DNA from: Schaalia odontolytica | GTDB taxonomy: Bacteria > Actinomycetota > Actinomycetes > Actinomycetales > Actinomycetaceae | Reading direction: 5' to 3' | DNA length: 32,000 nt | Assembly (NCBI RefSeq): GCF_005696695.1 | Contig: NZ_CP040006.1 | Location: 780,001 to 812,000 of the forward strand | Shown here: in pieces, positions 425-30,643 of the stretch | Layout: each line of letters begins with the position of its first letter | Position numbering within the stretch: position 1 is the first letter of the stretch | Notes under the pieces: generated by a model | Seen by the model: the letters and a program-made list of their open reading frames with translations, nothing else | Databases searched by the model: none | Told to the model about the DNA's origin: nothing | Made by a program: the position numbers and the translations under genes

Positions 425-602
425 CTGTCGTGAGAGTTGGGCATAGGCGGGCAGGGGAGTGGTTACTTGAAATTCGTGCCTCTGGCCAGGTGTTGACCAA
501 TTTAAGTGACGCTAAATTGTGGCGAGTGACAAACTAAAGCATGATAGTTCTGATGGGTACATTGTCGTACTCGCCAGACCCACAACTGAAAGTCGAGGAA
601 CC

Positions 603-3600
603 ATGCGCCGCAATGTTGCACGCATCGGGCTCGTCGCCGCCCTCGCCCTGTCCATGGGCGTGGCCACAGCGACCGCCCCACCCACCCGGGCCGACGATCG
701 CACCGGCCTCATCGCGCCCGCTCGCGCCAGCGCCGGCCTGATGAACTACGCCATCAACCTCAGCCCTCAGGCCAGCGCCGAGGACCTTGCGCGCGCGACC
801 TCGCTCGTCGCATCCGCCGGTGGCGTCACGCTGGCCTCCTATCCGGAGCTGGGAACGTTCTTTGCCCAGAGCGAGTCGGCATCGTTCGCCCCGGACCTGG
901 CCGCAGCCCTGGGGAAGGCCGGAATTTCCGTGCACTCGGTGGGCCCGACGCGCGTGGCCGCCGTGCCCGAGGGGGAGCGCCAGGCCGCTCCCGACCCACA
1001 GCCGGCCCCGCAGTCCGGCGAGGCGAGCCCGGCTCAGTCCGGAGCCCAGTCGGGCGCTCAATCCGGAGCGCAGTCGGGTGGCCCGTCCTCCCTGCGCGGA
1101 CAGAGTGCGACCGAGGCCGATAAACCCGAGGAGGTCGTCAACTGGGGAGCCCAGGCGATGAGTGCCACCGACGCCGCGGCTGTGCCGATCGCTCACGCGC
1201 CCGTCACCGTCGGCGTCATCGACACCGGCATCGACGACACGCACCCTGACCTCGTGGGTCGCGTCGACACCTCCCGTTCCGTCTCCTGCGGGCACAACGG
1301 CATCCCTTCTCAGGCCTACGGGTCTTGGCGTGACGACTACTTCCACGGCACACACGTCGCGGGCATCATCGCCGCCAACCACAACGGCATCGGCATCGAT
1401 GGCATTGCGCCGACCGCGACCCTCGTGTCCATCAAGGCCTCCAACGACGAGCAGCTCATGTACCCCGAGTACGTGACCTGCGGCTTCATGTGGGCCGCCA
1501 GCCACGGCGTCGACATCGTCAACAACTCCTACTCGATGGATCCCTGGGTCTACTGGAGCCCGAGCGATCCCGAGCAGGCTGCCGGCCTCGAGGCCGCGAC
1601 CCGCGCCATCGCATACGCGCAGGGTAAGGGGCTGGCCGTCATCGCCTCGGCGGGCAACGACGGCATGGACAACGACAACGTCACGACCGACAGCGGGTCG
1701 CCGACCGACCTCGACACCCCGATCAAGGACCGCCCCGTGAAGGACGGCGTAAAGGTCCCCGCCATGGTCGAGGGCGTCAGCCAGGTCAGCGCCGCCACGC
1801 GCACCAACGTCGAGACCAAGCCCGAATGGGCGAACCTCAAGCGCGCCGACTTCTCCAACTACGGCAAGAGCGTCGACTTCACCGCGCCGGGGCAGGACAT
1901 CTACTCGACCGTACCCACGTCGATCTTCTCCTCGGGTTACGCCAAGACCAGCGGCACCTCCATGGCCACGCCCCACATCACGGGCATCGCCGCGCTCATT
2001 AAGTCGATCCACCCGGGATTCCAGGGCAAGCAGATCACCGACCTCATGCGCAAGCAGGCCGCCATGGAATACACGCGCCTGGAAGCGCCCGAGGACGGCA
2101 AGGAATTCCGCGGTTACGGCTTCATCAACGCGCTGACCACCATGCGCCGCGACCAGCCTCAGCCGACCGTCCAGACCCTGCAGTACCGGGTCGGCAAGGG
2201 CGAATGGAAGGACGTGCACGGAGCGACCCTGCCGGCCGGCCCCGTCACCTTCTACACCGAGGCGATCGCCCCGATCAGCCACCTGCACATGGATGTTGCC
2301 GGCCTGGCATCCGTCGACCGCGACGGCTCGGGCAAGTTCTTCGATAGTGCACTGGGTGCCTCGATCGAAAACGTGGATCTCAGCGCACTGCTGCCCGAGG
2401 GCACGGACTCCGTGACCGCCCGTGTCCAGGTCAGCGCCACCGGCATCAACTTCGATCGCCAGGCCGACGACGACACGGGCCGCGAGGCCGTCTTCACCGT
2501 CTCGCGCGACCCGAACGCCGCTGCGACCCCGGCCCCCGCGCCAGACACCGACGCGCCCGCGCCGTCGGGCCCCGCCAAGGCCGGCATCACCGCCCCCGCG
2601 CGCAGCAACGACCAGCTGCCCGCCAACTACGCGGTCAACCTGCCCAAGGGCACCGATAACGCCACCTTCCAGCGTGCGGCGGCCCAGGCCTCGTTCCACG
2701 GTGGCCTGTTGCTGGCGCAGTACCCGGCCTTCGGCACGTTCTTCGTGCAGTCGGCATCGCCCACCTTCTCGCCCGACCTGGGCGCGGCGCTCGTGAAGGA
2801 GGGCATCAGCTACGACTCGATCGGCCCGACCCGCCAGGCGCCCGTCGGCGGTAACGAGGCCATGGTTCCCATCTCCTACGAGACCCGAGTTGCGGCGGAT
2901 GCGGCGATTGCGGCCGCGCCCCGCTCGCAGGGCGCACAGAGTGACCAGGACGCGGCCCTCACCCCGGACCCGCAGACCGGCAACGGATGGCACCTCCAAG
3001 CCCTGCGAGCCCTCGAGGCGCAAGGCGTGGACGTCATGCGCGCGCCCGTCACGGTGGGCATCATGGACCAGTCCATCGATGACACCGTGCCGGACCTGGT
3101 CGGACAGGTCGATCACGACAAGTCTGTGTCCTGCTCGTTTAACGGCATCCCGAACCGCGACCCCGCCGCGTGGCGCTGGGACGACGCGACCCACGGCACG
3201 CACGTGGCCGGTTCGATTGCTGCGAAGCATGACGGCGTGGGCGTGGACGGCGTGAACCCGACGCTGCGCATCGCCGCGATCAACGTGGCCTCGCGTAACG
3301 GCGGATTCTTCTACCCCGAGTACATCGTGTGTGGCTTCGTGTGGGCTGCTGAGCACGGCATCTCGGTGACCAATGGTTCGTACTACGTGGACCCGTGGAA
3401 GTACTGGCTCCCCAACGACCCCGAGCAGGCCGCGGGCCAGGAGGCTGTGCAGCGCGCGGTCGACTACGCGACCTCGAAGGATGTTATCAACGTCGTGGCC
3501 GCCGGTAACTTCTCGACCGACCTGGACAACCTGCCCACGACCGACGACTCGGCCCCCGGCGACACCTGGGGTGCGCACGAGCGCGATGTGACGGGCGCGG

Positions 3601-4937
3601 TCTACATGCCGCCGAAGCTGCGCGGCACGCTCTCCGTGTCCGCCCTGCAGCTTCCCGAGGGTGCCGACCCTGCCACCGGCGTGCTCGAGCCGGCCTCCTG
3701 GTCGAACTGGGGTGCGAACAGCATCGACTTCGCCGCCCCCGGCGCGAAGATCTACGCGCCGCTGACGAGCTGGTACGGCAAGGCCTACGGCAACCTGTAC
3801 GGCACCTCGCAGGCCTCGCCTCTGGCAGCCGCCGTCATCGCGACGCTGCGCCAGGTCCACCCGGAGATGAATGCCGAGCAGATCATCGCCCTGGCCAAGA
3901 AGCAGGCGGGGGATCCGTCGAACTGGGATCGTCTCAAGCCCGTCGAGGGCCGCGAGTACCGAGGCGCGGGCCTGCCCAACGCCCTGGACGCCGTCCTTAA
4001 GGACCAGGCGAAGCCCGTCATCGGCAGCGTCGAATACTCCACCGATGGCACCACGTGGCAGCCGCTGGCGGGGGAGAGCGTCGCCGGACGCGTCTCCATC
4101 CGCGTGACGGTGAGCGGTCCGGTGACCTCCGCGCGTCTCCTCGTCGGTGAGCGTGAAGTCGTGACCGGCGTGGGCAACGGCGCCTTCGAGGGCAACTCGG
4201 TGATGCTGCAGGCCGACGGCGTGGACGTGTCCCACCCGAACGGCACGGGACGCTTCGCGGGCGCCGCGACGGTCACGGTCGAGGCCATGGGCCGCAACAA
4301 CGACTCGCGGGCCGACGACGATGCGACGCTCCAGGTTCCCTTCACGGTCAGCCCCGACCAGGTCGGCCCCGACGAGGCCCGCTCGGGCCGCTGGGTCTCC
4401 GGCGCCTTCGGCTGGTGGTGGCGCTACGAGGACGGTACCTACCCGACCTCGACGCAGCTGCGCATCGACGGGGCGATCTACCGCTTCGACGCCCGCGGGT
4501 ACATGGTGACCGGCTGGGTCAGCGAGGGCGGCCACTGGTTCTACTACGGACCCTCCGGCGGCCAGGCCTCTGGCTGGATGCAGGTGCGCGGAACCTGGTA
4601 CTACCTGGATCCCATCAGTGGCGAGATGGCGAGTGGTTGGACCAAGGTGCGCGACACCTGGTACTACCTGGGTTCCTCGGGCGCGATGCGCACGGGATGG
4701 ATGCGCGACGGCTCCACCTGGTACTACCTGTCCGACTCCGGCGCGATGACCACAGGCTGGGCACGCATCGGATCCTCCTGGTACCACTTCGCCACCTCCG
4801 GCGCGATGAGCACCGGCTGGGTGAAGGACGGCGGCTCCTGGTTCTACCTCTCCTCCTCCGGGGCGATGGTGACCGGGGCGCGCTGGATCGACGGCACGCG
4901 CTACGTGTTCGACGACGAGGGTCGCCTCCAGGAGTAA
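603..4937 (+). CDS. Secreted tandem (two-module) subtilisin-like serine protease, peptidase S8, with C-terminal cell-wall-binding repeats
   Basis: Start chosen at ATG 603 (MRRNVARIGLVAALALSMGVATATAPPTRA, a signal peptide), preceded by gaggaa. Module 1 has an I9-like propeptide (NYAINL...YPELGTFFAQS...SVGPTR) and catalytic motifs VIDTGID (Asp codon 1221-1223), HGTHVAG (His 1344-1346) and GTSMATPH (Ser 1959-1961). A Pro/Ala linker follows, then a second propeptide-like segment (NYAVNL...YPAFGTFFVQS...SIGPTR). Module 2 has IMDQSID (Asp 3066-3068), HGTHVAG (His 3192-3194), AAGNFS and GTSQASP (Ser 3807-3809). The C-terminus carries GW..G.WYYL..SGAM.TGW repeats. Confidence 0.93.
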   Translation: MRRNVARIGLVAALALSMGVATATAPPTRADDRTGLIAPARASAGLMNYAINLSPQASAEDLARATSLVASAGGVTLASYPELGTFFAQSESASFAPDLAAALGKAGISVHSVGPTRVAAVPEGERQAAPDPQPAPQSGEASPAQSGAQSGAQSGAQSGGPSSLRGQSATEADKPEEVVNWGAQAMSATDAAAVPIAHAPVTVGVIDTGIDDTHPDLVGRVDTSRSVSCGHNGIPSQAYGSWRDDYFHGTHVAGIIAANHNGIGIDGIAPTATLVSIKASNDEQLMYPEYVTCGFMWAASHGVDIVNNSYSMDPWVYWSPSDPEQAAGLEAATRAIAYAQGKGLAVIASAGNDGMDNDNVTTDSGSPTDLDTPIKDRPVKDGVKVPAMVEGVSQVSAATRTNVETKPEWANLKRADFSNYGKSVDFTAPGQDIYSTVPTSIFSSGYAKTSGTSMATPHITGIAALIKSIHPGFQGKQITDLMRKQAAMEYTRLEAPEDGKEFRGYGFINALTTMRRDQPQPTVQTLQYRVGKGEWKDVHGATLPAGPVTFYTEAIAPISHLHMDVAGLASVDRDGSGKFFDSALGASIENVDLSALLPEGTDSVTARVQVSATGINFDRQADDDTGREAVFTVSRDPNAAATPAPAPDTDAPAPSGPAKAGITAPARSNDQLPANYAVNLPKGTDNATFQRAAAQASFHGGLLLAQYPAFGTFFVQSASPTFSPDLGAALVKEGISYDSIGPTRQAPVGGNEAMVPISYETRVAADAAIAAAPRSQGAQSDQDAALTPDPQTGNGWHLQALRALEAQGVDVMRAPVTVGIMDQSIDDTVPDLVGQVDHDKSVSCSFNGIPNRDPAAWRWDDATHGTHVAGSIAAKHDGVGVDGVNPTLRIAAINVASRNGGFFYPEYIVCGFVWAAEHGISVTNGSYYVDPWKYWLPNDPEQAAGQEAVQRAVDYATSKDVINVVAAGNFSTDLDNLPTTDDSAPGDTWGAHERDVTGAVYMPPKLRGTLSVSALQLPEGADPATGVLEPASWSNWGANSIDFAAPGAKIYAPLTSWYGKAYGNLYGTSQASPLAAAVIATLRQVHPEMNAEQIIALAKKQAGDPSNWDRLKPVEGREYRGAGLPNALDAVLKDQAKPVIGSVEYSTDGTTWQPLAGESVAGRVSIRVTVSGPVTSARLLVGEREVVTGVGNGAFEGNSVMLQADGVDVSHPNGTGRFAGAATVTVEAMGRNNDSRADDDATLQVPFTVSPDQVGPDEARSGRWVSGAFGWWWRYEDGTYPTSTQLRIDGAIYRFDARGYMVTGWVSEGGHWFYYGPSGGQASGWMQVRGTWYYLDPISGEMASGWTKVRDTWYYLGSSGAMRTGWMRDGSTWYYLSDSGAMTTGWARIGSSWYHFATSGAMSTGWVKDGGSWFYLSSSGAMVTGARWIDGTRYVFDDEGRLQE
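1032..1079 (+). repeat. 12-nt x4 imperfect coding microrepeat, (AQSG)4
   Basis: The sequence reads gct cag tcc gga / gcc cag tcg ggc / gct caa tcc gga / gcg cag tcg ggt. It lies in the linker between propeptide 1 and catalytic domain 1. Confidence 0.9.
4387..4934 (+). repeat. Array of ~60-nt coding repeats (cell-wall-binding repeats) at the 3' end of the tandem protease gene
   Basis: The translated repeats are GWVSEGGHWFYYGPSGGQASGW / MQVRGTWYYLDPISGEMASGW / TKVRDTWYYLGSSGAMRTGW / MRDGSTWYYLSDSGAMTTGW / ARIGSSWYHFATSGAMSTGW / VKDGGSWFYLSSSGAMVTG. Confidence 0.9.
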
Positions 4938-9247: not shown

Positions 9248-9494
9248 GTAGGCGACAAAACGGAGCCGTCAGTGGTTTGCGGGCCAGATGCTCCTCGCGT
9301 GGTGTGGGATGTGTGGGGGAGGGGGTGGTCCTCGCTGAGGCGCCATCCTCTCCACTTCTTCACCAAAAGGTCAAGAATTCTTAAATTGTGAAACTCTCTA
9401 GGAGGTTGTTGACAAACCTTGAGACGATGGAGCAATGGCGTGCCATCCGGAAAGCCCCGGAGACGCGTCCCCATCTGTACAGAAACGAGGAACA

Positions 9495-11933
9495 ATGATG
9501 CATCAACGCTCATGGAAGACCCTCATCGCGGGAGGCGCGGCGCTCGCTGTCGGCGTCACGCTCACCGCGTTCGGCGCCCCCGCCCACGCGGCGGGCGTCC
9601 CGGGGATCACCTCCGAGGCTCGCGCCCAGGACGAGGTCATGAACTACGCGGTCAACCTGACCGCCGACGCCTCCCACTACGACTTCAACGCGGCCGTCTC
9701 CAAGGCCTCGGAAAATGGTGTGGTCCTGGCCCAGTACCCCGAATTCAACACCTTCTTCGTCCAGTCGGTGAAGGCCTCCTTCGCCCCGACGCTCGGCAAG
9801 AGCCTCGTCGACGCCGGCATCTCCTACCAGTCGATCGGCCCCACCCGCTACAAGACGGTCACTGGCTCCGAGGTGCGCACCGAGCAGCCGCAGACCACCG
9901 CGTCCGAGGCCAACGCCGTCGCTGACGCCGCGGGCACCCGCTCGACCGGCCTGTCCGCCGACTCCCAGCTCAACGACTTCACCCCCGACGAGGGCGACGC
10001 CAACGCCTGGGGCCTGGCCGCCGTCGGCGCGCTCGAGGCCCAGCAGGTCGACGTCCCCCTCGAGAACGTGACTGTCGGCGTCATGGACACCGGCATCGAC
10101 CCCGACCACAAGGACCTCAAGGAGCACCTGGACGCTTCGCGTTCCGTGGGCTGCCAGATCAACGGCATCCCCAGCCAGAACCCCGCGGACTGGAAGGATG
10201 ACCACTACCACGGCACGCACGTCGCCGGCACTATCGCCGCCGCGCACAACGCCTATGGCGTGGACGGCGTGGCCCCCAGCGCGACCATCGTCGCGATCAA
10301 GACCTCGAACGAGGCCGGCTCCTTCTACCCCGAGTATGTGGCCTGCGCCTTCGACTGGGCTGCCGAGCACGACATCGACGTGACGAACTCCAGCTACTAC
10401 ATGGACCCCTACGCCTTCTGGATGCCCACCGAGGGCTCCCAGGCCGCGGGCCTTGAGGCTGCCTCGCGCGCGATCCGCTACGCGAAGAACCACGGCGTCG
10501 TCAACATCGCCGCCGAGGGTAACGACAACGACGACCACGACAACCCGACGATCGACAAGGCCTCGCCGAACGACGTCGAGGGCGCCGCGGTCGAGCGCAA
10601 CGTGGCCGGCGGCATTGACGTGCCCGCCATGGTCAACGACTCGGTCGTCTCCGTGGCCGCCGTCGCCCTGCCCACCGGTACCGACCCGGCCACGGCCAAG
10701 TTCGAGCGTTCCAAGTTCTCCAACTACGGCAAGACCTCCGTGGACGTGGCCGCCCCCGGCTCGCGCATCTGGTCGACCCTGCCGACCTGGAAGAAGGATC
10801 CGCCTTTCGGTTACCTGTCGGGTACCTCAATGGCTTCCCCGCACGCTGCGGGCGTCGCCGCGCTGATTAAGCAGATCCACCCGGACTACACGCCCGACCA
10901 GACGATCGCCCTGCTCAAGAAGCAGGCTGGCTACACCTACGACCGCCTCGCTGCGCCCGAGGATGGTAAGGAATACCGCGGCGCCGGCCTCGTCAACGCC
11001 CTGGCCGCAGTCCTCAAGGACCAGCCGCAGCCCGTCCTCGGCAGCCTTGAGTACTCCCACGACGGTGCCACCGACTGGCGTCCGCTGGCCGATGCGTCTG
11101 TCTCCGGTACCGTCTACGTGCGCACCACGGTCTCCGGCCCCGTCACCAAGGCCTCCCTGAAGGTCGGCGACAAGGAAGCCGTGACCGGCACCGGCACGGG
11201 CGCCTTCGAGGGGAACGAGGTCACGCTCGTGGCCGGCCCCTACAACGCCACCGACCTGATCGGCGACGCCCCCCATGTGGACGTCACGGTTGTCGCCGAG
11301 GGGCGCAACAAGGATTCCCGCGCCGATGACGACGTCAAGGACTCGATTCACTTCCGCGTGGATGAATCCCTGCGCGATGGCGGCGCCTGGACCAACAGCA
11401 CCGATGGCTGGAAGTACTGCTACAACGACGGCTACTGCGCCCGCAGCAAGTACATCGAGATTGACGGCGCCACCTACTACTTCAACGGCGACGCCGTGAT
11501 GGCGACCGGCTGGGTCACCTTCGATGCCGCGTGGCACTGGATGACTCCGTCCGGCCGCATGGCGACGGGCTGGGCCAACGTGGGTGGCACCTGGTACTAC
11601 CTCGATCCCGCCACCGGCGCGATGGCCACCGGCTGGGTTGACGTCGACGGCTCCTGGTACTACCTGAACGCCTCGGGCGCGATGGCGACCGGCTGGGTCA
11701 ACGTGGACGGTTACTGGTACTACCTGACCGGCAACGGCTCCATGGCCACCGGCTGGACCGCCGTCAACGGCAAGTGGTACTACCTGACCGGCAACGGCGC
11801 GATGGCGATCGGCTGGGTCAACGACGGCGGCACCTGGTACTACCTTGACGCCTCCGGCAAGATGGTGACCGGCTGGGTCTCCATCGATGGCACGCGCTAC
11901 CACTTCGCGCCCTCCGGCGCGTGGCTCGGCTGA
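9495..11933 (+). CDS. Secreted subtilisin-like serine protease (peptidase S8) with I9-like propeptide and cell-wall-binding repeats
   Basis: Start at ATG 9495 (MMHQRSWKTLIAGGAALAVGVTLTAFGAPAHA, a signal peptide), preceded by gaggaa. Propeptide: NYAVNL...YPEFNTFFVQS...SIGPTR. Catalytic motifs: VMDTGID, HGTHVAG, AAEGND, GTSMASPH. A beta-rich domain closely resembles module 2 of 603-4937 (SLEYSHDG..VRTTVSGPVTKASLKVG..GRNKDSRADDD). The C-terminus has GW..V.G.WYYL..(N/S)GAMATGW repeats. Confidence 0.93.
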   Translation: MMHQRSWKTLIAGGAALAVGVTLTAFGAPAHAAGVPGITSEARAQDEVMNYAVNLTADASHYDFNAAVSKASENGVVLAQYPEFNTFFVQSVKASFAPTLGKSLVDAGISYQSIGPTRYKTVTGSEVRTEQPQTTASEANAVADAAGTRSTGLSADSQLNDFTPDEGDANAWGLAAVGALEAQQVDVPLENVTVGVMDTGIDPDHKDLKEHLDASRSVGCQINGIPSQNPADWKDDHYHGTHVAGTIAAAHNAYGVDGVAPSATIVAIKTSNEAGSFYPEYVACAFDWAAEHDIDVTNSSYYMDPYAFWMPTEGSQAAGLEAASRAIRYAKNHGVVNIAAEGNDNDDHDNPTIDKASPNDVEGAAVERNVAGGIDVPAMVNDSVVSVAAVALPTGTDPATAKFERSKFSNYGKTSVDVAAPGSRIWSTLPTWKKDPPFGYLSGTSMASPHAAGVAALIKQIHPDYTPDQTIALLKKQAGYTYDRLAAPEDGKEYRGAGLVNALAAVLKDQPQPVLGSLEYSHDGATDWRPLADASVSGTVYVRTTVSGPVTKASLKVGDKEAVTGTGTGAFEGNEVTLVAGPYNATDLIGDAPHVDVTVVAEGRNKDSRADDDVKDSIHFRVDESLRDGGAWTNSTDGWKYCYNDGYCARSKYIEIDGATYYFNGDAVMATGWVTFDAAWHWMTPSGRMATGWANVGGTWYYLDPATGAMATGWVDVDGSWYYLNASGAMATGWVNVDGYWYYLTGNGSMATGWTAVNGKWYYLTGNGAMAIGWVNDGGTWYYLDASGKMVTGWVSIDGTRYHFAPSGAWLG
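11385..11930 (+). repeat. Array of ~60-nt coding repeats (cell-wall-binding repeats) at the 3' end of the protease gene
   Basis: The translated repeats are GWANVGGTWYYLDPATGAMATGW / VDVDGSWYYLNASGAMATGW / VNVDGYWYYLTGNGSMATGW / TAVNGKWYYLTGNGAMAIGW / VNDGGTWYYLDASGKMVTGW. Confidence 0.9.
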
Positions 11934-26871: not shown

Positions 26872-27420
26872 TCAGGAGTAGCCGAGGGCGGTGAACACGA
26901 GAAGGTGACAATCTTCCGACATGGCCAGCGCTTGGATGTCCATGGGACCGAAATCGTGTGGGATCTTCTCTTTATCCGGCGCGAGGGCCTTATCCGCGAA
27001 CTCCGGGTCGATCGTGGTGAACTGGCATCCCTGCGGCACGTACTCGTAGAGATCGGGATAGATGCCGGGCAGGAGCGTGTCGGTGGCTGCGCCCTCCGCG
27101 AGGAGCTGGATCGTCTCATCGGGGACAGCGGCAACGGCGGTGAGCCAGAATTCGGGGTCCTTGTCGGGAAGGAAGCCTGTTTGGCTGGAATAAGCGATGG
27201 TGAGGTGCGCTTCGCTTGCCTCCATGTTTGGCCAACGTAGGTTCACGGAGTCCGTCTGATCCTTGATGGTCGGCTCCTTATCGCTTTGGAAGACGAACTC
27301 CGCAAAGCGTGGATCCTTCGGGTACTGAGGAGCCGAAGACTTGTGTGCGAACGGGTTGCACGCGGCAGCGAGCGCCACGACCGCGAGTAGGGGCACGATG
27401 GTCTTGAGTGCGAGCTTCAT
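26872..27420 (-). CDS. Predicted lipoprotein, paralog 1 of 3 (unknown family)
   Basis: MKLALKTIVPLLAVVALAAAC has a lipobox-like L-A-A-A-C. It shares blocks with the other two: CNPFA..., DPRF.EFVF, LRWP, PEFW(L/I)TAVA.VPDETI, LLPGIYP.LYEYVP..CQFTTID, and DC/NC-HL(L/V)V.TALG. Confidence 0.75.
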   Translation of the reverse strand: MKLALKTIVPLLAVVALAAACNPFAHKSSAPQYPKDPRFAEFVFQSDKEPTIKDQTDSVNLRWPNMEASEAHLTIAYSSQTGFLPDKDPEFWLTAVAAVPDETIQLLAEGAATDTLLPGIYPDLYEYVPQGCQFTTIDPEFADKALAPDKEKIPHDFGPMDIQALAMSEDCHLLVFTALGYS

Positions 27421-27452
27421 GAGCGTCTTTCGGTCGCTGGTCGGTGGGGGAA

Positions 27453-28007
27453 TTAGGGGCGGCCGATCGCTGTGAGGACGAGCAGCTGGCAGTCCTTGGA
27501 CACCGCTATAGCGCTGATGGGCAGGGTTCTGAAATCCTTATTTCCCTTGCCTTTCTCGGGTGGGAGAATGGCGTTGGCGTGATCGGGGTTGATCGTCGAG
27601 AAGTGGCAGTTCTCGGGCACGAACTTGTGGAGCCGCGGATTGATTCCGGGCAGAACGCTCGCGTCCCCGGTTGCTCCTTCCATGAGGGTGTCGATCGTCG
27701 TGGTGGGGACGGTGGCGACTCCGGTCAACCAGTATTCGGGATCCTGCTCGAGGGAGTGGAGGATTCCCGAATGGGTGCGAGCGGCGACCACGTTGCCGTT
27801 GGTTGCTTGCATTCCCGGCCAACGCTCGTTGAACGAGTCGAGGCGTGTCTGCACCTTCGTCTTACGGTCGCTCGTGTAGGTAAACGGGGCGAAGCGTGGG
27901 TCCTGCAAGCCGTTCGAGCGGGAATTACCCTGCGCGAACGGGTTGCACGCGGTGGCGAGAGCCGCGACCGCGAGTAGGGGCACGATGGTCTTGAGGGGGA
28001 GCTTCAT
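27453..28007 (-). CDS. Predicted lipoprotein, paralog 2 of 3 (most divergent)
   Basis: MKLPLKTIVPLLAVAALATAC followed by NPFAQ. It has the same block order as paralogs 1 and 3, with many substitutions (DPRFAPFTY, ERWPGM, PEYWLTGVATVP, LPGINPRLHKFVPENCHFSTIN, DCQLLVLTAIG). Confidence 0.75.
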   Translation of the reverse strand: MKLPLKTIVPLLAVAALATACNPFAQGNSRSNGLQDPRFAPFTYTSDRKTKVQTRLDSFNERWPGMQATNGNVVAARTHSGILHSLEQDPEYWLTGVATVPTTTIDTLMEGATGDASVLPGINPRLHKFVPENCHFSTINPDHANAILPPEKGKGNKDFRTLPISAIAVSKDCQLLVLTAIGRP

Positions 28008-28112
28008 GGCTTTCCTTGGCTGGTCCTTTGGACTGTCATTGACGAGACCGGGGTGAGGGGCGTCAACGCGGTGCTTGAGAGCGTGTCTTGGCAGTTACGA
28101 CCATGCAACTGC

Positions 28113-28694
28113 TCACTGGGATTGGCCAGGATACGAAGGGGGAGTGTACTCATGCCCGAGCGCTGTCATCACGACCAGATGACAGTTCTTTGACACCGCA
28201 AAACCGGTGATTGGGATTGGGGTGAAGCCTTTCGTGGCCTTATCGATGTCTATCCCGAGGCGATCGTCGGCAAATTTGGCGTCGATGGTTGTGAACTGGC
28301 AGTCCTGAGGGACGTATTCATAGAGACCGGGGTAGATCCCGGGCAAGAGAGAGGTGTCGCCGATGTTGTTGTCAACCAGCTGAGTGATTGTCTCGTCCGG
28401 GACGGTCGCGACAGCGGTGATCCAAAACTCTGGTTCCGTCTGCGGAATACCAAAACCCGAACGAGAGTATTCGACCGTGATGTGGGCTTCAGAAGCTGCC
28501 AGCCCCGGCCAACGGAGGTTAAGTGAATCGACGCGCGTTTGGATCTTAGGTTCTTCATTAAAGTCGAAGACGAACTCAGAGAAACGCGGATCCTTCGGGT
28601 ACTGAGGAGCCGTCTTGTGTGCGAAGGGGTTGCACGCTGCCGTGAGAGCCACCGCGACGAGGATCGGGAGGATGAGTTGACGTATGGACTTCAC
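28113..28694 (-). CDS. Predicted lipoprotein, paralog 3 of 3
   Basis: GTG start at 28694, 3 nt after the upstream stop. MKSIRQLILPILVAVALTAAC followed by NPFAHKTAPQYPKDPRFSEFVF. It is close to paralog 1 and has a C-terminal EYTPPSYPGQSQ tail. Confidence 0.72.
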   Translation of the reverse strand: MKSIRQLILPILVAVALTAACNPFAHKTAPQYPKDPRFSEFVFDFNEEPKIQTRVDSLNLRWPGLAASEAHITVEYSRSGFGIPQTEPEFWITAVATVPDETITQLVDNNIGDTSLLPGIYPGLYEYVPQDCQFTTIDAKFADDRLGIDIDKATKGFTPIPITGFAVSKNCHLVVMTALGHEYTPPSYPGQSQ

Positions 28695-28697
28695 CCG

Positions 28698-29060
28698 TCA
28701 CACCCCGATGTGCGCGCAGACATACACATACTGTCCGCAGACCGCGACGCGGGTCGGGTAGCTGCTAATGCCGAGATAGGTCGGCAGGTCGGGACCGGTC
28801 ATCCAGCGCTGGCCTGCGAGGTGTTCAAGGGCCTCGGGAAGCCACAGATCACCCGTGTATTCGCCGGTGCAATTGTCGACGAGGAGGTCACTCCACTCCT
28901 GGTTCACCTCAACGCAGATCACCATGAACCTATCCGATGGAAGTGGAAGATCCGACTCGGACTTTAAAATGACGCGACGGTCAATGACGCGAAAAAACTC
29001 GTGGGTCGGCAGCAGTTCGTCGAGCATCTCCGCTGACATGAGCTGACGGAAACTCACCAT
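28698..29060 (-). CDS. Small cytosolic protein, candidate immunity protein (no recognised family)
   Basis: 120 aa. ATG 29060 is preceded by AAAGGAGG. No signal peptide is present. It sits directly downstream (33 nt) of the putative toxin gene. The assignment rests on position only. Confidence 0.5.
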   Translation of the reverse strand: MVSFRQLMSAEMLDELLPTHEFFRVIDRRVILKSESDLPLPSDRFMVICVEVNQEWSDLLVDNCTGEYTGDLWLPEALEHLAGQRWMTGPDLPTYLGISSYPTRVAVCGQYVYVCAHIGV

Positions 29061-29093
29061 GGGCTGCGGCCTCCTTTCTCGTTCCTGTTTTCT

Positions 29094-30278
29094 TTATCGG
29101 CGACCGTTATTGTCGTAGACCGGCTGAAAAGGTGGTTGTTGGCCGACCTTCCAGGTGTATGTCTTGGTCATGCTCCCACTGGTCTCGAAGCTTTTGGCCC
29201 ATCCGAGTTCCTCGAAACGGCCGTTGACATCATCGCCGAGGCCTGTAATTGAGTCGTGATCGCCCCTGTTGAAGTTCCACTTGTCCCGCGCATGAACGGT
29301 CACGGTCGCGGTGATCGTGTCCCCGTTGACCTGAACGTCGGTGTCGGTGTAGGTGTTGTGGCCGCCGAGTGTCCATCTCCAGTTCGCTGTCTCCGGATAA
29401 TTTCCGGTTGCGCCGAGACTGGTCTGGGGTCCATGGAGCGTGACGCCGGACTGGCCGGCCAAAGCCGCCTCGTTCGCCGCTGCCAGCGCACCATTGAGTT
29501 CTCCGTTGACGTGGTTACGGATACCTGCGTCCTCCTTGTACGCTCTCTCGTAATCGACAGACATGGGCGTGCCGGTGTTGTCGCGGAAATGCGCGTAGCA
29601 CCTCGCTGCGTCGGTCATGCCGAGGCTATATGCGCCGCCGAGGCCGCTCTGTCCCGCCTCCCAGAGGGCATAATCTCCGGCGTTGGCTTGCCCCTTCTTT
29701 GACCCCCAGACGAAATCTTCGTCCCATTTCTGGGTGCGATCGGGCTCGACGGTCGAATAGCCGCCCCATGTCGTGTAAGGCGTCGCTCCCGGTCCGGCCG
29801 TGATTGCAGCCTGCAAATCGTACTGCTCGAAGGCCGAGACCCGCGGGGCCAGGATGTTTCGATACTGAGTCGCCAGGATGAAGAGTCGTCCGATGTCCTT
29901 GGGGCTTGCAAACAGCAGGCGGTTTCGGAGCGGTCGAACACCCCACGTGTCAGTGACGACGAAACCATGGAGCTCGATCTGCTCTACCAGCGTAATAACG
30001 TCGCCCTGAAGGCTCGTCTTGTTCGTGCGATATGTCGTAACGACAGTCTGTAACTCTTCAACCAGCGCGATGTGAGTGTTGATCTGGCTTTCAATCTTCT
30101 GCAGATTGGCGAGGAGCGCGTCGGCGCTCTGGCCCTGCATCGTCTGTGTAATGAGCTCTTTTGCGTGCGCAATATCGTCCAACTTCGCCTGATCCTCGCG
30201 AAGTACCAAATCGCACCTGGCAATCGTGTCCGTGAAGCTGGACAAATCGAGTGCGTAGAGTTCCGTTTTCGTTACCAC
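29094..30278 (-). CDS. Candidate polymorphic toxin: WXG100/LXG-like N-terminal helical domain plus a C-terminal domain of unknown function
   Basis: GTG 30278 is preceded by GAAGGGGGA. The N-terminal ~120 aa is heptad-like helical, with a central MQGQSADALLANLQKI turn resembling the W/L-x-G..A..A loop of WXG100/LXG domains. No signal peptide is present. The C-terminal ~230 aa is Gly/Thr/Asn-rich (...AARCYAHFRDNTG...HARDKWNFNRGDHDSITGLGDDVNGRFEELGWAKSFETSG...) and I could not assign a motif. Confidence 0.6.
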   Translation of the reverse strand: MVTKTELYALDLSSFTDTIARCDLVLREDQAKLDDIAHAKELITQTMQGQSADALLANLQKIESQINTHIALVEELQTVVTTYRTNKTSLQGDVITLVEQIELHGFVVTDTWGVRPLRNRLLFASPKDIGRLFILATQYRNILAPRVSAFEQYDLQAAITAGPGATPYTTWGGYSTVEPDRTQKWDEDFVWGSKKGQANAGDYALWEAGQSGLGGAYSLGMTDAARCYAHFRDNTGTPMSVDYERAYKEDAGIRNHVNGELNGALAAANEAALAGQSGVTLHGPQTSLGATGNYPETANWRWTLGGHNTYTDTDVQVNGDTITATVTVHARDKWNFNRGDHDSITGLGDDVNGRFEELGWAKSFETSGSMTKTYTWKVGQQPPFQPVYDNNGRR

Positions 30279-30562
30279 GAAATGTCCCCCTTCAGGACGG
30301 AGGCAATCGAGTCGGAGATGTCGCGTTCCATGGCTTCGAAGGAATGGAGCGTCTTGAGCATGTTTGCGCGGGTCTTCTTCATCGCTTTCTGGATGCTCTT
30401 TTGTTCCTCATTGATGACCTGGATAGGCTCGCTGATCCGCTGTGCGTAGATGCGGCTGCACGGATCTCCCGCGGGGGGCGTGACCTCTGTGGTGGATGAT
30501 GACCCGTCGAGGTACTGAGCCGCCGTGCGTAAGGCGTCGCTCGAAAAACTCAAGTCCGGCAC
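30272..30562 (-). CDS. Small alpha-helical protein, candidate partner/chaperone of the downstream toxin
   Basis: 96 aa. GTG 30562 lies 6 nt after AAAGGAGA. Its stop overlaps the next start (GTGGTAA, 30272-30278). The C-terminal half is predicted helical (EEQKSIQKAMKKTRANMLKTLHSFEAMERDISDSIASVL). Its size and position match the small helical partners encoded upstream of LXG/WXG effectors. Confidence 0.5.
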   Translation of the reverse strand: MPDLSFSSDALRTAAQYLDGSSSTTEVTPPAGDPCSRIYAQRISEPIQVINEEQKSIQKAMKKTRANMLKTLHSFEAMERDISDSIASVLKGDISW

Positions 30563-30604: not shown

Positions 30605-30643
30605 GGGAGGTCCCGGGAAGCAACTTGCTTCCCGGGACCTCCC
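30605..30643 (-). terminator. Strong stem-loop terminator after the lactate permease gene
   Basis: A perfect 17-bp stem, gggaggtcccgggaagc / gcttcccgggacctccc, with loop aactt. It begins 19 nt downstream of the permease stop (30662) on the minus strand. Confidence 0.7.

Follow-up and report, generated by a model that had tools for sequence, protein, structure and literature searches.

The stretch of DNA analysed here, called the window below, comprises 32,000 nt of Schaalia odontolytica (contig NZ_CP040006.1), and all positions are counted within it. Our subject is a minus-strand gene at 29094–30278, a single open reading frame (ORF) with a GTG start, which encodes a 394-residue protein that we propose to be an exported toxin directed at the cell envelope, accompanied by a putative export partner and by candidate immunity lipoproteins. 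On the minus strand the features run in the order L-lactate permease gene, hairpin, 96-residue protein gene, toxin gene, 120-residue protein gene, three lipoprotein genes, lutA, lutB, and lutC; the permease gene, lctP, extends from 30662 to beyond 31885 (minus strand) and is the upstream neighbour of the region. We suggest that a toxin–immunity island has been inserted at 26872–30562 (minus strand), with the lactate permease gene on one side and lutABC on the other, a proposal to which, taken jointly with the whole explanation developed below, we give a little better than even credence. The region has the character of an island because its GC content falls to 0.57–0.62 over 26–31 kb, compared with 0.65–0.74 in most of the remaining window. 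Toxin alleles that are only 51–58% identical occupy this one chromosomal site, between lctP and lutA, in different Schaalia strains.

The 394-residue product has the same sequence as WP_060566702.1 (QCT35165.1, annotated as ‘hypothetical protein FBF35_03495 [Schaalia odontolytica]’) and was obtained by independent gene callers in six assemblies, in agreement with the reading frame reported in a first-pass annotation of this DNA made from the sequence alone. Since the protein is conserved and called in many assemblies, an artefactual ORF is ruled out. Its close homologues number 136, each of ~400 residues and at least 48% identical, from oral Schaalia and Actinomyces, and its 90% cluster holds 102 members, identical or nearly so in many isolates and metagenomes. 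All the peptide strings that the annotation had cited are found in the protein: ELITQTMQGQSADALLANLQKIESQ at residue 41, AITAGPGATPYTTWGGYS at 158, AARCYAHFRDNTG at 224, YPETANWRWTLGGHN at 294, HARDKWNFNRGDHDS at 329, and NGRFEELGWAKSFETSG at 352. It had also reported no signal peptide, and residues 1–60 indeed contain no hydrophobic stretch resembling one.

The C-terminal domain and its downstream lipoproteins

The protein's C-terminal domain (approximately residues 170–380; 29139–29771, minus strand) recurs behind many different N-termini. An exhaustive profile search over 1.84 billion cluster representatives, clustered at 50% identity, returned 750 matching representatives, 474 of them at E ≤ 1e-10. 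Most matches cover only profile positions ~182–385 and lie at the extreme C-terminus of proteins of ~250–3025 residues. The regions N-terminal to the domain consist of Rhs repeats in P0214, P0266, P0250, P0255, P0186, and P0258, and of a PF21725 T7SS_signal domain (E = 5e-31) together with WXG100 in P0188; others belong to PF06013, PF25547 (‘WXG100-like domain-containing protein’), the Rhs core, or TEN_YD-shell, and in several Rhs proteins the domain begins directly past the DPxGL motif that ends the core. Position at the C-terminus of proteins with varied N-termini is the defining behaviour of a polymorphic-toxin C-terminal domain, and the domain therefore qualifies as one. Thus, the polymorphic-toxin architecture suggested by the first-pass annotation is upheld: the same C-terminal domain stands behind unrelated N-termini and is followed by a candidate immunity gene.

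A scan of one genome per species located the domain in at least 257 species-level loci, mostly of Actinomycetota with a few of Burkholderiales. The actinomycetotal carriers include Mycolicibacterium, Mycobacterium, Nocardia, Lentzea, Saccharothrix, Promicromonospora, Terrabacter, Frankia, Salinispora, and Propionibacteriaceae. None of 46 diverse members of the family matches any Pfam model, so that they have no Pfam family in common, and no NCBIfam model reaches threshold on the window toxin. One 282-residue member lies in an extracellular contractile injection system (eCIS) locus of Paenibacillus sp. PR3 (GCA_014779765.1; L010:8001-8849). It has a disordered N-terminus rich in Ala, Lys, and Gly, with Baseplate_J and Tail_P2_I genes upstream and eCIS_core downstream; a 1418-residue Toxin-deaminase protein and Imm3 follow, and no gene of the immunity family described below is adjacent.

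The blocks of the C-terminal domain that had looked conserved by eye are conserved across 127 representatives sharing no more than 50% mutual identity. Invariant or nearly invariant positions are D250, W300, G305, D332, F336, N352, and G359, and the polar residues of this grade include D202, D223, Y228, D250, N299, W300, D349, N352, and R354. At 29375–29386 (residues 298–301, with the motif running to 302), the window toxin reads T-A-N-W-R-W and the family consensus T-E-N-W-Q-K. Many actinobacterial members (for example P0138, P0166, P0188, and P0196) have a conserved charged tail after the domain, ...R-N-P-G-R-E-D-R..., which the window toxin lacks, ending instead in ...YDNNGRR.

Downstream of the toxin gene lie a gene for a 120-residue cytosolic protein (28698–29060, minus strand; 33-nt gap) and then three genes for paralogous lipoproteins, each a candidate immunity protein: paralogue 1, of 193 residues (28113–28694), paralogue 2, of 184 residues (27453–28007), and paralogue 3, of 182 residues (26872–27420), all on the minus strand. 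Paralogue 1 has a signal sequence and a ...LTAAC lipobox, and the other two are of the same family. At the lctP–lutA site, Schaalia strains carry two, three, or four lipoprotein copies, and the 193-residue protein is missing from one strain with an identical toxin (L003). Scans of the three lipoproteins with Pfam and NCBIfam gave only noise, as did a profile search of the PDB with the immunity family, which returned interleukin-6.

To assess the pairing across species, an immunity-family hidden Markov model was applied to the best 80 of the at least 257 species loci, counting ORFs on the same strand within 2.5 kb downstream. A lipoprotein-family ORF follows the toxin domain in 78 of the 80 loci. 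A strict lipobox or anchor pattern is present in 71 of the 82 such ORFs, and most of the others show a lipobox by eye. The downstream homologues have 191 residues in A. naeslundii, 154 in Actinokineospora, 164 in a Chloroflexi WXG100 locus, and 150 and 160 in two Rhs/YD loci. Common to the family are a lipobox or N-terminal anchor and a motif of the ‘GPS.YW’ type.

The 120-residue protein has a much narrower distribution. Copies 53–64% identical to it occur only in Schaalia lctP–lutA loci, and the loci of A. naeslundii and Actinokineospora, like the Chloroflexi and Rhs loci, lack the gene, so that it appears to be a Schaalia-specific accessory and is ruled out as the general immunity gene. Neither Pfam nor NCBIfam, nor the PDB searched with a family profile, returned a match for it; conceivable roles are those of a chaperone or of an additional safeguard inside the cell. 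The first-pass annotation had completed its toxin arrangement with a ‘small downstream gene’. This gene exists, but three lipoprotein paralogues lie beyond it, and the partner found across phyla is the lipoprotein family. Because that family lies downstream in 78 of 80 loci, the lipoprotein, rather than the 120-residue protein, is taken as the immunity candidate; by its sequence features this conserved candidate partner is extracytoplasmic, which makes a site of toxin action beyond the cytoplasmic membrane the most likely one. That the locus encodes a toxin–immunity module with an envelope target is, in our judgement, very probable; one or more of the three paralogues would be the cognate protein of this toxin.

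The N-terminal hairpin, its putative small partner, and probable type VII export

Residues 1–157 (29808–30278, minus strand) form a helical domain with a putative role in trafficking. In the full-length AlphaFold2 model (predicted local distance difference test, pLDDT, 83 overall and mostly 85–96 in this domain), helices spanning residues 14–46 and 50–103 pack as a hairpin (pLDDT ~87–96), and a third helix, 126–156, is followed by a low-confidence linker and the alpha+beta C-terminal domain. The two long N-terminal helices around a turn that had been read from the sequence are thereby recovered in the model. The turn motif, M47-Q48-G49 (30132–30140, minus strand), aligns with the W-E-G or W-x-G of relatives, and in P0064, P0102, and P0119 the aligned turn reads W-E-G-Q/E-A/S-A. 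The best match of the family profile in the PDB is Staphylococcus aureus EsxA (E = 0.07), in register on ‘NWEGQA’, followed by T. curvata 4lws (E = 0.19), and in Foldseek the hairpin fits onto chain 4lws_A (T. curvata EsxA/EsxB) with a target template modelling (TM) score of 0.81 and a root-mean-square deviation of 2.1 over 95 columns. By both AlphaFold2 and Foldseek, then, the protein begins with a WXG100-type helix-turn-helix hairpin of ~100 residues.

Relatives extend this likeness. Sub-threshold matches to WXG100 were found in 12 of 25 relatives (best E = 1.8e-4), to Hydro_N_hd in 12 of 25, and to LXG in 3 of 25 (E ≥ 0.01). Among 80 toxins of other species with the same C-terminal domain, whose N-terminal families differ widely among themselves, 68 carry W.G in canonical contexts in the N-terminal part. 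In some toxins with the same C-terminal domain, from Paractinoplanes, Salinispora, and Cryptosporangium (L056, L064, and L084), the hairpin turn is W-x-S (for example ‘VEWHSDAATLYEQRL’), which is another variant of the signal motif beside the M-x-G of S. odontolytica.

Immediately upstream of the toxin gene, a 96-residue protein is encoded at 30272–30562 (minus strand), an ORF called in five of six assemblies. The gene has an AAGGAG ribosome-binding site and a GTG start, and its stop overlaps the start of the toxin gene (GTGGTAA), so that the two are translationally coupled. Small upstream genes recur in Schaalia, A. naeslundii, and Actinokineospora, and five such partners from three genera share an aligned [F/Y]xxx[D/E] motif, which reads F-E-A-M-E in the window copy. 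The 96-residue protein matches no Pfam model, and its NCBIfam scan likewise gave nothing above noise; synteny, together with published work on related loci (PMC13622651, PMC13444075), suggests that it is a putative targeting factor similar to Tap, Lap, or WXG100 proteins. In Actinomyces sp. (GCA_001057055.1; L014:10346-11115), four immunity lipoprotein genes are followed by a second partner gene, whose product is 33% identical to the 96-residue protein, and then by a 159-residue ORF that matches only the N-terminal domain of the toxin (29% identity); judged by its sequence, this ORF is an orphan trafficking module that carries no toxin domain.

A functional Esx system, with eccC and EsxA/B, has been described in S. 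odontolytica F0309, together with eight candidate substrates encoded outside the Esx cluster, each beside a small gene for a WXG100-like hairpin protein (PMC13622651). Given this system in the species, the refuting condition named in the first-pass annotation, a lack of T7SS core genes combined with a lack of any LXG or WXG profile match, is taken not to apply. The window gene, from the same species, fits this description of an extra-cluster, hairpin-adjacent substrate. It differs from the F0309 substrate AesB, which has a disordered C-terminus and no immunity array, in possessing a folded, enzyme-like domain. The F0309 secretome contains four eccC-dependent proteins, each of which has its gene inside the Esx cluster, and the window toxin is not among them (PMC13622651). 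On the strength of the hairpin, the coupled partner gene, and these parallels, we consider export of the toxin by an Esx/type VII secretion system (T7SS) probable.

Resemblance to colicin M and the proposed mechanism

A model of the C-terminal domain alone, built with AlphaFold2 on 46 diverse sequences, is of high quality (pLDDT 94.9, predicted TM score 0.90), and in a Foldseek search of the PDB only three matches exceed noise. The best by far is the C-terminal domain of BtpeA (9jdi_A; E = 1.3e-4, probability 1.0, query TM score (TMq) 0.50, 230 aligned columns), which also ranks first for the full-length model (E = 2.1e-3). The second and third are colicin M structures, 2xtq (E = 0.017, probability 0.69) and 3da4 (E = 0.027, probability 0.54). 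Foldseek against viral structures gave only levivirus coat-protein noise. Searches of the PDB by sequence and profile, with the domain alone, a broad family profile, and an Rhs-only sub-profile, returned no significant match and no bridge to 9JDI. A weak hit that kept recurring there, to 1j83, the carbohydrate-binding module of EngF (E = 0.2–0.4), was dismissed, since it covers one strand-loop; 9jdi_A is absent from the PDB searches with three family profiles at E ≤ 10. Nuclease, deaminase, ADP-ribosyltransferase, and NADase payloads were ruled out, having no fold or profile support and being at odds with extracytoplasmic immunity. The first-pass annotation had seen no signature of a nuclease, deaminase, ADP-ribosyltransferase, lipase, or peptidoglycan hydrolase, and the profile and Foldseek searches agree with it. 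Its further description of the C-terminal domain as unassignable holds for Pfam and NCBIfam, which give no match, but the domain does have remote structural and profile relatives in colicin M and BtpeA.

The colicin M family (ColM, PaeM, PsyM, and the pectocins M; PF14859) consists of lipid II-degrading phosphodiesterases. A profile of the colicin M catalytic domain was built from few homologues, after two frameshifted sequences had been removed, and was aligned with the profile of the present family by hhalign. The alignment is collinear across the whole domain. It pairs H230-F231 with H135-Y136 of colicin M, and it pairs a beta hairpin followed by D332-K-W-N-F-N with ...V-R-S-Y-D-D226-K-Y-D-F-N, so that an H-[YF] pair and a D-K-[YW]-x-F-N loop after a beta hairpin occur in both. 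When single sequences were used, the catalytic loop alone aligned. Shuffling the columns of the colicin M profile 100 times gave global scores of 1.9 ± 1.8 (maximum 10.2), against 18.0 for the real alignment, and local scores of 12.8 ± 2.5 (maximum 20.6), against 21.1.

The candidate catalytic loop, D332-K-W-N-F-N-R-G-D-H-D342 (29253–29285, minus strand), aligns with D226-K-Y-D-F-N-A-S-T-H-R236 of colicin M. Across the 127 representatives, the loop never varies at D332 or F336 and has Y or W at position 334; N335 is kept in 94% and D342 in 97%. In colicin M the essential residues are D226, Y228, D229, H235, and R236, within the motif DxYD(x5)HR, and D226 (D232 in PsyM) holds the divalent cation (PMC8469651). 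The consensus of the present family is D-x-[YW]-N-F-N-x4-D, which departs from that motif. Hence neither by defining motif nor by profile is the domain a member of the Colicin_M family; its resemblance to that family lies in the core loop, in immunity topology, and, more tentatively, in fold. Regarding topology, colicin M kills from the periplasmic side only, and its immunity protein Cmi is membrane-anchored and periplasmic (PMC8469651), a topology that matches that of the window locus, where action is likewise expected only outside the cytoplasmic membrane and the candidate immunity proteins are membrane-anchored and extracytoplasmic.

There are also clear differences from colicin M. The window family adds an N-terminal four-helix sub-domain and the invariant D250, W300, D349, and N352-G-R-F; colicin M is imported in a TonB-dependent manner, whereas delivery in the window family would be by T7SS, Rhs, or eCIS; and the window immunity family is unrelated to Cmi, PmiA, and PmiB. 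Two proteins, P0338 and P0339, carry genuine Colicin_M (PF14859) domains with the full DxYDFNASTHR sequence directly after the end of an Rhs core (...DPADE..GxNLY.FCGNSP..FVDFLGL). Thus, colicin M itself also serves as a polymorphic-toxin warhead, a position behind Rhs cores that the two families share.

We favour, with slightly better than even confidence, an explanation in which the protein is an Esx-exported toxin that cleaves an envelope precursor in the manner of colicin M and is countered by lipoprotein immunity. According to this model, the N-terminal helical hairpin of the toxin would pair with the co-translated 96-residue partner in a helical bundle of the WXG100 type, whose export signal would be composite, with the (W/M)xG turn contributed by the toxin and [F/Y]xxx[D/E] by the partner, and the Schaalia Esx system would export the pair. 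The C-terminal domain would then attack a neighbour from the outer side of that cell's cytoplasmic membrane. If colicin M is taken as the analogue, the active site would be centred on Asp and probably metal-dependent, comprising D332 with D250, D342, D349, N352, and R354, and may cut lipid II, or another envelope precursor of the polyprenyl-linked kind, at its pyrophosphate link, thereby blocking wall synthesis. Surface-anchored lipoproteins of one conserved family, here the three paralogues, would bind the toxin domain and protect the producer and its kin. The individual parts of this model do not carry equal weight. The layout of the genes, the modularity of the toxin domain, its almost invariable pairing with the lipoprotein family, and the likeness in fold and profile are observed, whereas T7SS export, toxicity, the reaction, and the choice of the cognate paralogue are inferred; metal-dependent cleavage of lipid II or of a related polyprenyl-pyrophosphate-linked precursor, taken on its own, has a probability that we place close to even or just short of it.

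Several observations weigh against this explanation. With respect to the fold, the TM scores given by Foldseek for colicin M are low (0.17–0.26), and the raw significance of the hhalign comparison is weak (E = 0.001 global and 0.018 local; probability 2–8%). Only two of the five essential residues of colicin M, the equivalents of D226 and Y228, are kept throughout the family; the position of D229 is Asn, that of H235 is variable (His in the window toxin), and that of R236 is Asp in 97%. Neither Colicin_M (PF14859) at E ≤ 10 nor DUF3289 in Pfam matches any of the 46 members. With respect to export, Met replaces Trp at the turn of the window protein, which therefore lacks W-x-G, and in the Pfam scan neither WXG100 (PF06013) at E ≤ 1 nor LXG (PF04740) matched it. 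Of the WXG/LXG-like N-terminus proposed by the first-pass annotation, the hairpin fold, the alignment with EsxA, and the W-E-G of relatives stand, while the thresholds of the WXG100 and LXG families are not reached. Furthermore, no type VII core gene lies within the 32-kb window, and the documentation of Esx comes from F0309, another strain of the species. The model does not account for the 120-residue gene. The eCIS-borne copy, with no adjacent immunity gene, and the Rhs-borne copies suggest that the domain may be active inside a recipient cell as well. Finally, positions 298 and 302 are Ala and Trp in the S. odontolytica clade, as against Glu298 (115/127, 91%) and Lys302 (120/127, 94%) in the family.

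Some of these observations would fit a toxin of the same architecture with a different chemistry, such as hydrolysis of a wall polymer (peptidoglycan, teichoic, or other), a lipase activity, or non-catalytic blocking of an envelope component. The immunity topology locates the target and does not specify the reaction, three of the five residues essential in colicin M are not conserved, and there is a precedent in a Bacteroides effector described as non-enzymatic (PMC12541434). Against this, no peptidoglycan hydrolase, lipase, or pore-former exceeds noise in Foldseek; the invariant Asp/Asn/Arg cluster is typical of a metal-dependent active site, whereas the family lacks a Ser-His-Asp set, and neither a Cys nor a Glu is strictly conserved in it; and the collinear alignment with colicin M beats all 100 shuffles. 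We regard a chemistry unlike that of colicin M as unlikely, though with an appreciable chance of being correct.

A second alternative concerns the target rather than the reaction, and is compatible with either chemistry. S. odontolytica is host to parasitic Saccharibacteria (TM7) epibionts, and the island might encode an anti-parasite effector, with these epibionts rather than competing Actinomyces or Schaalia as its physiological target. The Esx system of F0309 limits TM7 growth, and infection with TM7 induces five of the eight candidate substrates encoded outside the cluster (PMC13622651). However, an action on TM7 was shown in that study for AesA/AesB only, and deletion of the one other candidate substrate had no effect (PMC13622651). 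In addition, two to four diversified immunity lipoproteins and alleles as divergent as those described above at one site are the signature of competition among kin and strains, and the family is widespread in soil Actinomycetota and in Gram-negative Rhs toxins. TM7 as the principal target is improbable in our estimation.

The substitutions of Glu298 and Lys302, each conserved in >90% of the family and replaced in the clade by Ala and Trp, and the Met in place of the hairpin Trp also raise the prospect that the S. odontolytica allele has decayed or been retargeted, retains little activity, and is kept only as part of the island. All invariant residues are nevertheless retained, D332 included, the ORF is of full length and is identical or nearly so across the 102 members of its cluster, and the partner and immunity genes are intact; decay is, in our view, quite improbable. 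Last, a cytoplasmic toxin with the 120-residue protein as its immunity factor and the lipoproteins as unrelated island cargo is very improbable: the gene follows the toxin directly, co-diverges with it in Schaalia, and in other loci the domain is delivered by Rhs or eCIS systems, which usually means entry into the cell, but the gene is missing from every non-Schaalia locus examined, in contrast to the lipoprotein family, and neither profile nor fold shows similarity to a nuclease, NADase, deaminase, or ADP-ribosyltransferase.

A broader hypothesis can be framed, which we advance tentatively and hold at rather less than an even chance. Within the colicin M superfamily, the domain may represent a sizeable sister clade that has no name, distinguished by an active-site signature and a lipoprotein immunity family of its own. 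It would be the first colicin M-like toxin against lipid II or a polyprenyl-linked precursor to be delivered by a T7SS, distributed among Actinomycetota, mycobacteria and oral Actinomycetaceae included, with the same warhead re-used by Rhs/type VI secretion system (T6SS) and eCIS proteins. In S. odontolytica the toxin might, in addition, have a part in Esx-dependent defence against Saccharibacteria. The signature proposed for this clade comprises Y-x-H-[YF], T-E-N-W-Q-K, D-x-[YW]-N-F-N-x4-D, and N-G-R-F.

Related systems and other features of the window

Several known effectors resemble parts of the system. The closest structural match, BtpeA (Bfe5; PMC13402684), is a T6SS effector of Bacteroides fragilis with the immunity protein BtpiA (PDB 9JDI). 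As proposed for the window protein, the matching part is a toxin domain at the C-terminus, the effector is secreted and antibacterial, and an immunity protein is dedicated to it. BtpeA differs in being only 13% identical, with no detectable sequence or profile link (TM 0.36–0.50), and in its T6SS delivery by means of a PAAR N-terminus. A precedent for a colicin M-like fold that is invisible to sequence comparison and serves as a secreted effector domain is the T6SS effector–immunity pair DUF3289–DUF943, which has been proposed to be a structural homologue of colicin M and is toxic in the periplasm (PMC11148199). There the phyla and the immunity family are different, and DUF3289, as noted above, matches none of the 46 members.

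With respect to secretion, TelC–TipC of Streptococcus intermedius is described as an LXG toxin exported by a T7SSb, acting as a lipid II phosphatase, with its immunity protein outside the membrane (PMC6193138). By that description, TelC is comparable to the window system as proposed here in its T7SS export, its helical N-terminal domain, its target, lipid II in the inner wall zone, and its extracytoplasmic immunity; it differs in belonging to a Firmicute T7SSb with Lap partners, whereas the reaction expected for the window toxin is colicin M-like. The folds are unrelated, and no TelC chain is present among the 50 Foldseek PDB matches listed or in the PDB sequence searches. Closer in taxonomy are the T7SSa loci of Actinomycetota, exemplified by EatA/TapA1–TapA2/EatI, which combine one or more upstream Tap/Lap-like genes, a helical bundle, and a variable toxin domain with downstream immunity that bears a lipoprotein signal when the target is extracellular (PMC13444075). 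The window island follows the same locus grammar. EatA itself has a GH183 arabinanase payload; the window family would fall among the 47% of payloads for which no function was predicted (PMC13444075).

Polymorphic toxins of actinobacterial T7SSs are thus already a known kind; the warhead and immunity families found here are widespread and unnamed. Antibacterial T7SS toxins of Actinomycetota have been described only recently, the first inter-mycobacterial case in a 2026 paper, and a 2026 preprint states that, until its own work, experiments had not identified any Esx effector in Actinomycetaceae. The present locus offers a widespread candidate toxin–immunity pair with a candidate active site (D332), a probable target compartment, and a clear immunity family, in what appears to be a strain-variable competition island of a common oral commensal that hosts TM7 epibionts. 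If the chemistry proves to be like that of colicin M, then colicins, T6SS, Rhs, eCIS, and T7SS would each have recruited the cleavage of lipid II on their own, and the domain would supply a further enzyme scaffold directed at a target that is validated for antibiotics in Gram-positive and mycolate bacteria.

Between the stop codon of the permease gene and the toxin operon, a GC-rich perfect hairpin can be read from the sequence at 30605–30643 (within ~2 nt; minus strand). Its inverted repeat, GGGAGGTCCCGGGAAGC...GCTTCCCGGGACCTCCC, directly follows the permease stop and has no T tract. The hairpin probably serves as a terminator, so that the toxin operon would be transcribed as a unit of its own. 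A scan of the region (60% GC) for promoter and terminator consensus sequences returned nothing; the terminator scan misses this hairpin because it lacks a T tract.

The other genes of the window encode S8 subtilases, DUF5692 proteins, a helicase, PhoH, Era, and a UvrA-like protein. Two of them specify large secreted S8 subtilases with C-terminal choline-binding repeats (519–4937, plus strand, 1472 residues, and 9435–11933, plus strand, 832 residues), and two genes for DUF5692 membrane proteins lie between the two.

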